Origin: an uncultured Pseudomonadota bacterium
GTDB taxonomy: Bacteria > Babelota > Babeliae > Babelales > CAIQNR01
DNA: 64,000 nucleotides
Direction of reading: 5' to 3'
Assembly (NCBI GenBank): GCA_964606885.1
Contig: CAZSHB010000003.1
Coordinates: forward strand, 8,539-72,538
Shown here: positions 52,624 through 61,031 of the stretch, piece after piece
Position numbering within the stretch: position 1 is the first letter of the stretch
Layout of the letters: every line of letters begins with the position of its first letter
The notes under the pieces: model-generated
The model's database searches: none
Told to the model about the DNA's origin: nothing
Seen by the model: the letters and a program-made list of their open reading frames with translations, nothing else
Position numbers and translations under genes: made by a program

Positions 52624-53304
52624 ATGAAAGCAGAATTCGATCAATACATAGAAGATAATTATCGCGAGGATGATGCTCTATCGTTAACCGGTTATTCATA
52701 CGATTTTTTTGCCCGTTATAAAGCAGAAAAGCTACATAAGTGGATAAGTAAAGGCGGCTATGCAGCACATAACATCCTAGACTTTGGATGCGGTGACGGC
52801 CTCATGACTAGTTATGTACACAAGCTATTTCCCAAAGCAACAATCACCGGCATTGACCCTTCATCAAAGAGTATTGAAACTGCTCAGGCTAACCACCCCG
52901 GCATAACGTTCAAAACATCAGAACAGTTGGAAAACAGTACACAAAAGTTCGATGTTATCTTTGCAGCGTGCGTGTTCCATCATATTCCAGAATCAGAACA
53001 AGCGTTTTATGTTAAACAACTTAAAGAGCTCCTCAATAAAAATGGCGTTATCGTTATTTTTGAAATGAATCCACTTAATCCCATCACACGCTATATGTTT
53101 AAAAGAATCCCTGTAGATCGTAATGCTATTATGATCTATCCGTGGGAACTTAAGAACCTGTTTGCTACGGTAGGTAAACCGCGCATTAACTACTATGGAT
53201 TTTTCCCAAAACTACTTTCTTTTATGCAGCCCTTAGAAAACTATTTTGAATGGATTTCTATAGGTGCCCACTACGCTCTTGTAGTGCAAAAGAAAGGCTC
53301 TTAA
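52624..53304 (+). CDS. class I SAM-dependent methyltransferase
   Basis: Motif I 'ILDFGCGDGLMT', post-I 'ITGIDPS' and 'FDVIFAACVFHHI'. Confidence 0.75.
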   Translation: MKAEFDQYIEDNYREDDALSLTGYSYDFFARYKAEKLHKWISKGGYAAHNILDFGCGDGLMTSYVHKLFPKATITGIDPSSKSIETAQANHPGITFKTSEQLENSTQKFDVIFAACVFHHIPESEQAFYVKQLKELLNKNGVIVIFEMNPLNPITRYMFKRIPVDRNAIMIYPWELKNLFATVGKPRINYYGFFPKLLSFMQPLENYFEWISIGAHYALVVQKKGS

Positions 53305-54612
53305 AAGCGATATACCATAGATCGTATTCAATAGATAAAATACATATAAATTTGAAGTGTAGCTTGGCATATTTTGAGCCAAACCGCTCATCAATGTTTG
53401 ATACATCAGTGCAGCAAAAACCAAAAGTATAAAAAGTGATTTTCTATACAACGCTACACATACTGTTAATGGCAACAAAAAATACGATGCCAACAGTAGA
53501 ATAATGCTTGCACCATACGAACTAGCCGTTAAAAAGATTCTAAAAACCTCTGCTGAATGCGATAGTATTAAAGATGGATTTTCAATAACATGCGTAACTA
53601 ATTCACGTATACGTGCTTGTTTTAAAAATGGCATTTCTCCATACTCATCTAAAAAAAACTCTCCCGGATAAAAACCTTGAGTAACCACTAAAAAAAGATT
53701 GTAAACGCATTTACGTACATAATCCCACGGATACGCCGTTATATACTCTAGAAAAGTACGCTTTAATACTTGGTCTGCCTCATAATCAAGCGTTGAGTGG
53801 CGCACTGTTTTAAAATGCTCATTAACAACATGGTGCATAACAGGATCTCCATCACTTACCGTAATTCCCCACCTATTCTTACTATCATGACCTAAGCCAA
53901 TAAATGCTACATGCCCACCATTAGTAGAAGTTACAAGATAATGACCACATGCTTTTTTAGTATAGAACGCCCATGGAGCAAGACAGCCATACAACACAAT
54001 AAGCCACACAAGCATCTGTAAAAAAGATTGTTTAGTTCTAAAAAAACCTACAACAATAACAGCAAGCCCAATCGGCATTAAAAAATAATCTGATCTAAAG
54101 TGTAATAATACTCCAAAGCAAAGAGCTGAACCTATAAGATATACCCAGTTTTTTTGCTTACGAATCACTGCTCTGTATAAGAGTGGTAATGCTACTAAAA
54201 ATAAACTTGCTGCAATACCACTTGGCCAACGTAATGCATGAAACGCATACCAGGGAATACTGACCACCATACCAACTTTTAATGCCCTTATAACCGTTGC
54301 TGAAAATATATTTTCCTGCTCTATAATGCGTAGAGCCCAATATAAAGTACATAATGCAAACACCATCTCAATACATAATAACGTTAACTTATCTTGAGTA
54401 ATACTCATCAACCATCCATACCCCCACATAGGAAACGTAGGCAAATGTTCACCTGCAAAACCTGTTCTAATAAGAGAAGCATAATGTTTGTAATAATGTA
54501 ACCCTCCAACATTATGGTCTGCATACCAATTACAATACATCACAAAACTTGCCACAGGTACCATAACGGCGATATACCAACGATCTAAAAAAGATTTACT
54601 ATTTTGTTGCAT
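53233..54612 (-). CDS. polytopic membrane protein, paralog 1 of 5 (unrecognised family; candidate lipid-linked-sugar glycosyltransferase or glycan polymerase/ligase)
   Basis: About 10-11 predicted TMs plus a soluble loop of about 110 aa. Family motifs are 'FPMWGYGW', 'IPWYAFHALRWP', 'HFRSDY', 'YTKKACGHYLVTSTNGGHVAF', 'STLDYEADQ', 'YPWDYVRKC' and 'YPGEFF'. Confidence 0.7.
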   Translation of the reverse strand: MQQNSKSFLDRWYIAVMVPVASFVMYCNWYADHNVGGLHYYKHYASLIRTGFAGEHLPTFPMWGYGWLMSITQDKLTLLCIEMVFALCTLYWALRIIEQENIFSATVIRALKVGMVVSIPWYAFHALRWPSGIAASLFLVALPLLYRAVIRKQKNWVYLIGSALCFGVLLHFRSDYFLMPIGLAVIVVGFFRTKQSFLQMLVWLIVLYGCLAPWAFYTKKACGHYLVTSTNGGHVAFIGLGHDSKNRWGITVSDGDPVMHHVVNEHFKTVRHSTLDYEADQVLKRTFLEYITAYPWDYVRKCVYNLFLVVTQGFYPGEFFLDEYGEMPFLKQARIRELVTHVIENPSLILSHSAEVFRIFLTASSYGASIILLLASYFLLPLTVCVALYRKSLFILLVFAALMYQTLMSGLAQNMPSYTSNLYVFYLLNTIYGISLLRAFLLHYKSVVGTYRNPFKIVF

Positions 54613-54628
54613 AAAACACCAAACTTTC

Positions 54629-59546: not shown

Positions 59547-59636
59547 ACCACTCTCCAGAAATTACGTATCAATAAAACATGTACCCAAACATATAAGATC
59601 TACCATCTATGTCCAGAGAGCTTAAAATGGCAATTT

Positions 59637-61031
59637 CTATTGTTGTTTATAGAATCGACACAGCGCTCTATAGCAAGCACCCGTATACTCATATACTAAA
59701 ACAAAACCATACAAAGCCTGTAGAAGATACAAAACATACAGATTCCCAAGATAACTCGGCATGTGAAAACAAAAACAATTTATGAGAGTCTGGTAAGCTA
59801 TTACTGCAAGCACTAGAAGCATAAAAAAAGATCTCTTACGAAAAACAACATCCCACACTATTAACGGCATAAAGAGATAAGAAAATAAAATCACTAACGT
59901 ACTCACACCACAAGAAAACGCCGTAAATAGAATACGCATTGTATCCAAAGGGCAGGTAATAACAAAAGTTGGATTTTTTATTATTTCTATAAGTAGTAAG
60001 CGTATACGGGTATTTTCTAGCAAGGGCATTTCGCCATGTTCATTCATAAAAAATTCCCCTGGGTAACAACCCCCCAAAACTAGTTCACAAAAAACATAAC
60101 CTATTTTTTTCAGGTACTCTTTAGGGTGAGTTGTGATATAGGAAAAAAAAGTCTGCTTTAAAAACTGGTCCGCTTCATAAGTACATGTTAAAGCATTATG
60201 TTGCTGCATATGTTCGTCAACAAGTGTATGCATCAAGGAATCAGAATCATCTGGCGTAATTCCCCATCTATTACCAGGATTATGACCTAAACCTATAAAC
60301 ATTACATGGCCCCCATTAGTTGATGCCAGCTGATAATATCCACACGCTTTTTTGGTATACATTGCCCATGGTAATAAACAAGTGTAGACAGCAAGACACC
60401 AAACAAACATCTGTAGAACAGTTTTCTTTGTTGTAAAAAAGATAAGCGCTAAAAAAACAAACCCTAACGGCATTAACAAATAATCTGATCTAAAGTTCAA
60501 GAGCAACCCAAAAGACAATGCGGAAAGCAGTATATAAAACCAGCCATTTTGTACATGCGTTACTGCTTTATAAAAGAAAACAAGAGAGATCAAAAAAAGG
60601 CTTGCCGCAATGCTATATGGCCAACGCAACGCATGAAAAGCATACCAGGGGAAACTTAAGATCATGGATATTTTTAATACCCTTAAAAATATTGGCGAAA
60701 AAAGAGCCTCTTGTTCAAGAAATTTTATAAAAAAATAAAGAACAGTAAACGCTAAGCCCATCTGGATAGTTAATAAACCTAGCTTACTTTCTGTAATCAG
60801 CATGAACCAACCATAGCCCCACATAGGAAATGTAATCAAGTCGGTATGTTTAAACCCACTCTGTATAATCGTTTTAAATTGTTGATAATTTGGTAAAAGC
60901 CCTGCCATGCCCTGCGCGTGCCAATTAAGATAGATCACTACTGGCGCTAGTAAGAACATAACTCCTAAATACCAATAATCAATAAACTTACCTATTTTTT
61001 TAGCAATATGCATGATACCCGTATCTTTCAT
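59637..61031 (-). CDS. polytopic membrane protein, paralog 5 of 5 (most divergent)
   Basis: Motifs are 'FPMWGYGW', 'FPWYAFHALRWP', 'NFRSDY' and 'YTKKACGYYQLASTNGGHV'. It diverges at 'TCTYEADQ' and 'HPKEYLKKI'. 'YPGEFF' is retained. Confidence 0.7.
   Translation of the reverse strand: MKDTGIMHIAKKIGKFIDYWYLGVMFLLAPVVIYLNWHAQGMAGLLPNYQQFKTIIQSGFKHTDLITFPMWGYGWFMLITESKLGLLTIQMGLAFTVLYFFIKFLEQEALFSPIFLRVLKISMILSFPWYAFHALRWPYSIAASLFLISLVFFYKAVTHVQNGWFYILLSALSFGLLLNFRSDYLLMPLGFVFLALIFFTTKKTVLQMFVWCLAVYTCLLPWAMYTKKACGYYQLASTNGGHVMFIGLGHNPGNRWGITPDDSDSLMHTLVDEHMQQHNALTCTYEADQFLKQTFFSYITTHPKEYLKKIGYVFCELVLGGCYPGEFFMNEHGEMPLLENTRIRLLLIEIIKNPTFVITCPLDTMRILFTAFSCGVSTLVILFSYLFMPLIVWDVVFRKRSFFMLLVLAVIAYQTLINCFCFHMPSYLGNLYVLYLLQALYGFVLVYEYTGACYRALCRFYKQQ

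Follow-up and report, generated by a model that had tools for sequence, protein, structure and literature searches.

Five Paralogous Membrane Proteins of a Likely New GT-C-Fold Family and Their Putative Lipid-Sugar Synthase in a Glycan Locus of a Probable Dependentiae Bacterium

The stretch of DNA considered here (the window) comprises 64 kb of contig CAZSHB010000003.1 from an uncultured bacterium and carries, within a glycan locus, five tandem genes for membrane proteins of about 450 residues, designated W1 to W5. These proteins are full-length paralogs of a single family, which has the predicted fold of the GT-C glycosyltransferases, has its conserved loops outside the cytoplasm, and is linked by gene adjacency and by a natural fusion to Dpm1-like glycosyltransferases of family 2 (GT2). 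W1–W5 are probably specialised members of an uncurated GT-C family that depend on a polyprenyl-phosphate-linked sugar, are served by one GT2 and decorate an exported surface glycan. The family is likely a new one within an already known class of enzymes, rather than a new kind of system.

The Five Paralogs

An earlier note, made from the sequence alone, had described five homologous open reading frames (ORFs) in this region, and all of them are present on the minus strand and can be aligned end to end. In the MAFFT alignment, identity ranges from 46 to 56% over all pairs and from 48 to 51% relative to W1, and each protein matches the family hidden Markov model (HMM) with an E-value of about 1e-183 to 1e-190. 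Such values, together with the full-length identity, exclude chance similarity among the five. The shared motifs quoted in the note recur in the copies, the exceptions being ASTNGGHV, TCTYEADQ and PKEY in W5, PWDYVRKC in W1 and YSGEF in W3. WWDYG is absent from all of them, as had been stated, and so is the shorter WWD.

Residue conservation was counted over 98 diverse members of the family. W2 retains 26 of the 26 most conserved columns, and W4 and W5 are likewise without deviation in them. W1 departs at Q82E (unique among the 98 members), N171H and P244S, and W3 at N171H, S174A and P244R. The most divergent copy in the motifs of the soluble domain is W5, in which the equivalents of R173, D175 and D254-x-D are kept. 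Judged by these residues, all five copies look functional.

Family Size and Distribution

Searches of W1–W5 against Pfam and NCBIfam returned no match at E ≤ 1, and W1–W5 and the family profiles found nothing beyond noise among the PDB sequences (e.g., Kv channels and designed coiled coils), so that the proteins are as unassignable to a known family as their motifs had suggested. A word-indexed search of 5.8 billion proteins yielded 50 relatives, only one of which carries a Pfam domain (a GT2 fusion), and when 1.84 billion cluster representatives were searched exhaustively with the HMM, 1,043 of them matched at E ≤ 1e-3, including 293 with E ≤ 1e-30. A motif-seeded scan of 185,579 species-representative genomes, a GTDB-representative set that does not include the window's own genome, identified 26 loci, every one from a metagenome-assembled genome (MAG) or a single-cell genome. 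Loci and proteins outside the window are designated below by L and P numbers, respectively. The 26 loci belong mostly to Bacteroidota, and also to Acidobacteriota, Gemmatimonadota, NC10, Nitrospinae, Melainabacteria, Phycisphaerales and Paceibacterota; 25 of them are single-copy, and L011 contains a weak second match to the family HMM. The literature on GT-C enzymes in Dependentiae and on Dependentiae lipopolysaccharide (LPS) and glycosyltransferases, as well as surveys of GT-C families, provided no description of this family.

Distant members connect the family to the GT-C clan, weakly but consistently. Six of 33 match the Pfam family PMT_2 (best E-value 5e-6), and one matches GT87. In the four PMT_2-matching members examined, positions 9–160 of the 160-position profile are aligned with residues ~70–214, which cover transmembrane (TM) helices 2 to 7, in a constant register. 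The hhalign comparison of the family profile with one genuine PMT_2 protein (L008, 8413–9969) gave a probability of 0.3 for this single-sequence target, and a search of the PDB for sequence relatives of that protein found none.

Predicted Fold and Membrane Topology

AlphaFold2 models were built for W1 (45-sequence alignment, predicted local distance difference test score (pLDDT) 92.9, predicted template modelling score (pTM) 0.92) and for P0184, a distant member ~22% identical to W1–W5 (98-sequence alignment, pLDDT 92.7). The W1 model contains ten TM helices, two short helices in the first outward loop (EL1) at residues 35–49 and 64–71, and an all-helical soluble region at ~212–352, and its chain ends shortly after TM10. 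The 10–11 helices expected beforehand are thus found as ten, but the conserved loop, put at about 110 residues, is a soluble region of ~130–140 residues.

In the Foldseek comparison of the W1 model with the PDB, every credible match is a GT-C structure: AglB 7e9s (E = 3e-3, probability 1.0, TMq 0.43), STT3, ArnT (5ezm and 5f15), ALG9, ALG12 and PIGU. The independent P0184 model retrieved STT3, ArnT, Pmt4, PglB, ALG9 and PIGU at probability 0.99–1.0, with PIGU at the top; the Emb/Aft structures were ranked lower (probability 0.25–0.77), and WaaL 7tpg_B reached a probability of 0.15 and a TMq of 0.21. The comparisons of both models support a GT-C-like fold of the family. The earlier suggestion had been a resemblance to GT-C enzymes or to Wzy/WaaL proteins, and only its first half is supported, given the WaaL scores and the lack of a Wzy_C match.

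The orientation in the membrane is provided by a natural fusion, P0032, in which the membrane domain (residues 6–427) is followed by a GT2 catalytic domain (450–671) and then by extra C-terminal TM segments. A GT2 that uses nucleotide sugars must be cytoplasmic, and because this domain comes after the membrane domain, the latter has its C-terminus on the cytoplasmic side. Ten TM helices bring the N-terminus to that side as well and leave EL1 (28–75), the HALRWP turn, the NFRSDY loop (171–176) and the domain 212–352 all outside. Short loops rich in lysine and arginine at ~151–155, 192–196 and 389–392 agree with the positive-inside rule. A cytoplasmic position of the conserved loop, which had been named as evidence against the glycosyltransferase reading, is therefore not what the fusion indicates. 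The model and P0032 together display the hallmark topology of GT-C enzymes, with 7–13 TM helices, the N-terminus inside, and a loop with juxtamembrane helices after TM1.

P61, W63 and G64 in EL1 and Q82 in TM2 are invariant or near-invariant. R173 is present in 96 members, D/E175 in 97, D254 in all 98 and D256 in 84; P213, W214, S229, N231, G233, G241, N246, W248 and K301 are also invariant or nearly so. EL1 has no column in which an acidic residue is conserved. At position 53, the one column that is often acidic, 44 of the 98 members have D and 29 of 45 relatives have D/E, but W1–W5 have A, E, K, N and K, which agrees with the earlier statement that the first loop is without a conserved acidic residue. 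Such conservation makes R173 a candidate for binding the donor phosphate, and D254 and/or D175 candidates for a base or a metal ligand.

One metagenomic member, P0154 (641 aa), carries a C-terminal ankyrin-repeat domain (residues ~550–640), which would be cytoplasmic given the topology of the family; a fusion of this kind is unusual for a GT-C-like protein.

Pairing with a Dpm1-like GT2

The GT2 encoded in the array has the dolichol-phosphate mannose synthase (DPMS) of Pyrococcus as its best PDB relative (5mlz, E = 4.5e-27 over residues 3–238, the catalytic domain), followed by ArnC and GtrB, and it is without a TM domain. The match confirms the Dpm1-like neighbour recognised earlier, whose precise site is between W3 and W4. 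The best NCBIfam matches of this GT2 include PgfS and AglJ, which belong to protein-glycosylation systems.

Homologs of the GT2, about 250 aa in length, lie directly beside a family gene in at least ten loci (L003, L005, L012, L014, L015, L017, L018, L019, L020 and L026) and within a few kb of one in L002 and L007, so that the pairing spans several phyla. This adjacency and the one fusion support a functional tie between the family and a Dpm1-like GT2, and they point indirectly to a lipid-phosphate-linked sugar as the putative donor. The window and an NC10 MAG (L005) have in common a whole cassette of a nucleotide-sugar 6-dehydrogenase (UGDH), an epimerase/dehydratase (EPIM) of the short-chain dehydrogenase/reductase (SDR) family, the GT2 and a family member, with identities of 60, 72, 54 and 39%, respectively. 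The loci without a GT2 homolog are mostly glycan or exopolysaccharide loci, such as those of Gemmatimonadota with a PMT_2 protein and Wzz/GNVR; a Nitrospinae locus of this kind contains oxidoreductases and an AsnB-type amidotransferase. Overall, most genomic contexts of the family are glycan loci.

The accompanying sugar genes vary by lineage, with two SDR enzymes in Bacteroidota and sugar C-methyltransferases, DegT aminotransferases and acetyltransferases elsewhere, and because of these differences the family probably does not depend on a single kind of sugar. In a Bacteroidales MAG (L003, 6962–11237), an FAD_binding_4 protein (440 aa) and a short-chain dehydrogenase (244 aa) precede the GT2-family pair. 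DprE1/DprE2 epimerise a lipid-linked sugar, and by analogy this DprE1/DprE2-like pair suggests that the lipid-linked sugar may be epimerised before its transfer.

History of the Copies and Related Loci

In the neighbour-joining tree (200 bootstraps), the five window copies are monophyletic in none of the replicates. W4 is paired with P0006 of L028 (75% identity) in 200/200, W1 groups with P0014, P0009, P0010 and P0015 (53–68% identity; the first three are members of its orthogroup) in 199/200, and the multi-copy clade stands apart from the single-copy homologs of other phyla in 181/200. Orthologs across the related genomes are 65–75% identical, and GlyA of these genomes is 85% identical. Because the copies are orthologous across genomes and those of the window are never monophyletic, the duplications are older than the split of these organisms. 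That such old copies have been kept speaks for specialisation rather than for a recent amplification or a reservoir of cassettes. Among the meanings proposed earlier for the five copies, specialised acceptor or linkage specificities are therefore the best reading, while a recently duplicated, exchangeable reservoir for antigenic variation is unsupported.

Synonymous sites are probably saturated at 46–56% amino-acid identity, and divergence was compared as identity by region. Divergence among the copies is greatest at residues 321–352 (27% identity) and in TM8–10 (40%), and EL1 and residues 212–320 are the most conserved (58–62%). This pattern would suit a common donor site combined with differing acceptor sites.

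The copy number is five in the window and two to five across close relatives, with three copies in L029, two each in L030 and L031 together with a very divergent 472-aa relative, and four in L028 together with a divergent 474-aa relative beside a second, ArnC/PgfS-like GT2 and an amino-sugar cassette. The related contigs share the flank glyA-UGDH-EPIM-(methyltransferase), which in L028 and L030 is covered as far as the epimerase or UGDH; the opposite end contains Wzm/Wzt ABC-transporter genes in all of them, and the segment in between varies. Glycan genes across the loci related to the family include Wzm/Wzt, GT4, Wzz, DegT and sugar methyltransferases, and in L028 the GT4 ortholog comes after Wzm/Wzt. 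Its gene content gives the locus the appearance of a hypervariable region for a surface polysaccharide that is exported by an ABC transporter and decorated after export.

The divergent polytopic relative (472–474 aa; L028, 11434–12858; L030, 7821–9239; L031, 4928–6346) is without a Pfam or NCBIfam match, and in L028 it shows a weak match to a soluble-domain motif (GLGEFKNKWGFKLSD; HMM E = 8.6e-5). There, the genes directly after it encode a full-length GT2 resembling ArnC/PgfS and an acetyltransferase/SDR/DegT cassette; in L030 and L031 these genes are located on the upstream side of the divergent relative. The protein may represent another transferase, strongly diverged and supplied by a donor synthase of its own. 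The GT2 partner of the family is split into two ORFs in L030 (9236–10017), although L031, which is nearly identical, has it intact. In L029 (6947–7564) and L030 (2637–3293), only ~205–218 aa of the GT4 are left. Both observations would fit either ongoing decay or turnover in the glycan locus or assembly errors.

Proposed Mechanism and Alternative Explanations

In the proposed mechanism, UGDH and the SDR epimerase/dehydratase would produce a modified UDP-sugar in the cytoplasm, possibly a hexuronic acid or a derivative, and the TM-less GT2 would load this sugar onto polyprenyl (undecaprenyl) phosphate. The lipid-linked sugar would then cross the membrane by means of some flippase, for which the part of the locus inside the window offers no candidate gene, and each paralog, acting through its outer-face loops, would add it to a different position or acceptor of the surface glycan. 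The acceptor glycan itself would be built in the cytoplasm by GT4 and other enzymes and exported by the Wzm/Wzt ABC transporter. Overall, one donor synthase and five transferases would form an extracytoplasmic glycosylation module of the Gtr/Arn/Rgt type.

Several observations weigh against this proposal. The Foldseek E-values of 3e-3 to 1e-2 and TM-scores of 0.35–0.47 mean that the fold is assigned from a common core, none of the matches being close. The PMT_2 scores of the distant members (17.8–23.4 bits) fall under the gathering threshold of 26.1, and W1–W5 themselves give no match to PMT_2 (PF13231) at E ≤ 1. No flippase of the GtrA, MATE or SMR type is encoded in 50375–63857, where every membrane ORF is assigned (the window stops at 64000), and no small multi-TM ORF was seen beside the GT2-family pairs in the Bacteroidota loci examined. 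Wzm/Wzt are known from the relatives only, the window ending at 64000, and a few distant Bacteroidota members adjoin CpeT-like, LytTR or dnaX genes, not glycan genes. Finally, the proposed catalytic Asp of many GT-C enzymes sits immediately after TM1 (PMC11127046). In the present family this residue is N28 (Asn in 44 of 45 relatives and 83 of the 98 members), and the usual catalytic Asp is missing.

A bolder version of the proposal is tentative and on the whole doubtful. It holds that the catalytic machinery has moved, with N28 replacing the Asp and D254 (of the D-x-D after TM7) together with R173/D175 carrying out catalysis, and that in host-dependent Dependentiae the family has expanded into as many as five specialised enzymes, which use one lipid-linked sugar to make or branch a surface polymer, for the most part outside the cytoplasm. 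If true, an obligate intracellular bacterium would possess a compact counterpart of the arabinan/mannan assembly of mycobacteria.

Among the alternatives, an acceptor in lipid A or the LPS core, served by the same GT-C class and the same type of polyprenyl-phosphate-sugar donor as in ArnT or RgtA-D/RgtF, is unlikely. The conserved set of UGDH, SDR, GT2 and GT-C genes parallels Ugd/ArnA/ArnC/ArnT and Rgt, ArnT is among the top structural matches, and the PMT_2 signal is that of the ArnT/PMT family. Rhizobia likewise pair several transferase paralogs with one donor synthase, namely the galacturonosyltransferases RgtA-D/RgtF with the single bactoprenyl-phosphate-galacturonic acid synthase RgtE, as cited in PMC7663294. 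However, the locus of the relatives is of the polymer type (Wzm/Wzt, GT4, CAP59-like glycosyltransferases and variable sugar-precursor cassettes), and no lipid A genes are found nearby.

It is quite unlikely that W1–W5 are protein glycosyltransferases of the PMT or oligosaccharyltransferase (OST) type, O- or N-glycosylating secreted or envelope proteins with one substrate set per paralog. The OST catalytic subunits AglB, STT3 and PglB and also Pmt4 are among the top structural matches, but the OST matches probably reflect the shared GT-C core alone (TM-score ~0.45), and the window proteins, of only ~450 aa, have no WWDYG, no C-terminal periplasmic (mixed alpha/beta) domain of the OST type and no MIR domain. 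The PgfS and AglJ matches of the GT2 and the Ser/Thr/Pro-rich secreted protein encoded at 46719–47309 speak for such a role, whereas the context is dominated by genes of polysaccharide export and chain length (Wzm/Wzt, Wzz/GNVR).

It is very improbable that the paralogs are non-catalytic, GT-C-like membrane partners that anchor or activate the TM-less GT2 or translocate the lipid-linked sugar. A GT2 without TM helices would need a membrane partner, to which the mycobacterial Ppm2/Ppm1-D1 and the eukaryotic DPM3 would be analogous, and a GT2 fusion exists. PIGU, the top match of the P0184 model, is a non-catalytic GT-C-fold subunit, the canonical EL1 Asp is missing, and no separate flippase was found in the locus. 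Nevertheless, it is difficult to see why one GT2 should require five anchors, and the GT2 of the P0032 fusion brings its own extra C-terminal TM segments. The most conserved residues (D254 in 98/98, R173, D/E175, N246 and W248) have polar or charged side chains on the outer side, as would befit an active site outside the cytoplasm but not a docking surface within it.

Wzy-type polymerases or WaaL-type ligases acting on undecaprenyl-diphosphate-linked repeat units, to which the paralogs are similar in size, polytopic topology and glycan-locus position, are scarcely credible and were rejected on the grounds of fold (the poor WaaL 7tpg scores, and no SEDS/Wzy structure among the credible matches), Pfam (no Wzy_C or O-antigen ligase match) and context (a monophosphate-sugar synthase as the conserved partner, and Wzm/Wzt in the relatives, which makes Wzy unnecessary, with no Wzx/Wzy there).

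Gene Organisation of the Locus

The genes of the locus are listed in Table 1. On the minus strand, the order is two methyltransferases, GT4, W5, W4, GT2, W3, W2 and W1, with intergenic gaps of -4 to 90 nucleotides (nt), and the first gene visible in this block lies next to the right edge of the window at 64000. The arrangement fits one operon. A scan of 52400–64000 for consensus promoters and terminators gave matches at or below the shuffled expectation, so the operon structure is drawn from the gaps alone. The GT2 stop and the W3 start overlap by 4 nt, which suggests translational coupling.

The plus-strand UGDH, EPIM and methyltransferase genes converge on W1, with the methyltransferase and W1 sharing their last 72 nt (53233–53304). 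The same type of overlap is present in L028 (20227–20298) and L029 (12704–12775). The overlapped tail of W1 (residues 449–459) is disordered in the AlphaFold model (pLDDT <50).

Table 1. Genes of the glycan locus, by window position.
Gene or product	Position	Strand	Remarks
Nucleotide-sugar 6-dehydrogenase (UGDH; UDP-Glc / UDP-ManNAc dehydrogenase family)	50375..51622	+	Conserved flank; TIGR03026, 253 bits; PDB 3vtf, 4r16, Cap5O
SDR-family nucleotide-sugar epimerase/dehydratase (EPIM)	51564..52589	+	Conserved flank
S-adenosylmethionine (SAM)-dependent methyltransferase	52624..53304	+	Convergent with W1
W1 (459 aa)	53233..54612	-	Last operon gene; family HMM, alignment, AlphaFold model
W2 (445 aa)	54629..55966	-	Family HMM, alignment
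W3 (458 aa)	55981..57357	-	Family HMM, alignment
GT2 (257 aa)	57354..58127	-	Predicted polyprenyl-phosphate sugar synthase, DPM-synthase type; PF00535, E = 1.1e-20
W4 (460 aa)	58164..59546	-	Family HMM, alignment; ortholog P0006 in L028
W5 (464 aa)	59637..61031	-	Family HMM, alignment
GT4-type (GT-B) cytoplasmic glycosyltransferase	61040..62320	-	Directly upstream of W5; profile match
SAM-dependent methyltransferase	62320..63096	-	Same operon as W1–W5; profile match
SAM-dependent methyltransferase	63123..63857	-	First operon gene visible before the window edge at 64000

Host and Other Genes of the Window

The best named relatives of the window GlyA come from MAGs of Candidatus Dependentiae/Babeliales (63–66% identity). 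A MAG labelled 'Alteromonas naphthalenivorans' (L002, JBLICC010000004.1) contains P0197, the closest family member not labelled as Dependentiae (41% identity). The GlyA of this MAG is 70% identical to that of the window, above the named Dependentiae MAGs, and the label is probably wrong. The window also encodes two tandem ankyrin-repeat proteins of 518 and 525 aa (33582–35138 and 35149–36726, minus strand) and a leucine-rich-repeat protein of 533 aa (30964–32565, minus strand). Repeats of both types form interaction domains of a eukaryote-like kind that typify intracellular symbionts or parasites. They fit the placement given by GlyA, and a Dependentiae-type, host-associated bacterium is the likely source of the window.

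Further genes of the window include a 1,230-aa protein (13948–17640, minus strand), the sole recognisable part of which is a C-terminal module of an MscS-type mechanosensitive channel (~1021–1181), the N-terminal ~1,000 aa being unannotated. On the plus strand, the 196-aa ORF at 46719–47309 has a signal-peptide-like N-terminus and a Ser/Thr/Pro-rich body, and its product is possibly secreted or glycosylated; a 131-aa antisense ORF (46703–47098, minus strand) covers most of it and is probably spurious. A 308-aa ORF (45037–45963, plus strand) is alpha/beta-hydrolase-like by eye (HGTWS...HSHGG), and its end is overlapped by ~120 nt by a 262-aa ORF (45845–46633, plus strand) resembling glutamate racemase (MurI) by eye, the true start of which is probably further downstream than listed.

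Implications

If W1–W5 are GT-C transferases as proposed, a new GT-C family of the CAZy type would be founded, and a function would be assigned to ~1,000 clusters of 'hypothetical' membrane proteins from Bacteroidota, Acidobacteriota, Gemmatimonadota, NC10, Nitrospinota, Melainabacteria and the candidate phyla radiation (CPR). The layout of the active site would then depart from the Asp-after-TM1 rule that guides most mechanistic work on GT-C enzymes, which would make the family a useful test case for acceptor activation. To our knowledge, the envelope glycans and host-interaction surfaces of Dependentiae are essentially uncharacterised, and the array would point to a hypervariable surface-glycan locus of the ABC-transporter type in this group. 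The GT2-family pair is a compact two-gene module, so heterologous testing would be feasible, and perhaps also a use in glycoengineering.

Comparison with Known Systems

The nearest sequence family is PMT_2 (PF13231; GT-C clan, GT39/GT83-like), with which some distant members share a near-full profile alignment over TM2–TM7, but the family reaches at most 23.4 bits against the threshold of 26.1, and the five window proteins do not match it. Unlike the OST enzymes STT3, PglB and AglB (GT66), W1–W5 are without WWDYG and without the C-terminal extracytoplasmic mixed alpha/beta domain. Because the sequence thresholds are not reached and the canonical EL1 acid is absent, the family is not filed in any existing one.

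The proposed arrangement resembles the three-component systems, i.e., GtrA/GtrB/GtrC of Shigella and Salmonella, gmlABC of Klebsiella and ORF15/14/12 of Citrobacter with GT136, which also act on ABC-transporter-dependent O-antigens (PMC11127046). As in those systems, a synthase would load polyprenyl phosphate, and an adjacent GT-C protein with outward loops would add the sugar to an exported glycan. A polyprenyl-phosphate sugar synthase is indeed encoded with the GT-C proteins, but the dedicated flippase gene of the Gtr type is not identified within the window, five transferase paralogs rather than one accompany the single synthase, and this synthase is without TM helices. The GT-C proteins here also stand outside existing sequence families and lack the Asp after TM1.

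The set of a UDP-sugar dehydrogenase, an SDR enzyme, a GT2 synthase and one or several GT-C transferases is shared with ArnT/ArnC (GT83) and with RgtA-D/RgtF and RgtE. Several transferases with one donor are found in the rhizobial Rgt system, and ArnT is a top structural match, the weak PMT_2 sequence matches of distant members pointing in the same direction. In contrast to ArnT, the acidic residue of EL1 is not conserved, W1–W5 are not significantly similar in sequence to ArnT/PMT_2, and the context suggests a polymer and not lipid A.

In mycobacteria, the tandem paralogs EmbC-EmbA-EmbB, as well as AftA-D and PimE/MptA-C, use decaprenyl-phosphate-arabinose or polyprenyl-phosphate-mannose. The Emb/Aft proteins differ from the window proteins in being ~1,000 aa long, with carbohydrate-binding domains and a fold of the GT-C_B type, whereas W1–W5 have ~450 aa and a small all-helical outward domain. 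The parallels with mycobacteria extend to the DprE1/DprE2-like pair that accompanies the family in L003 and to the TM-less synthase of the Ppm1 type. Like the Emb/Aft arrays, the window array consists of tandem, anciently diverged GT-C paralogs, each of which is proposed to form a different linkage from a single lipid-linked donor.

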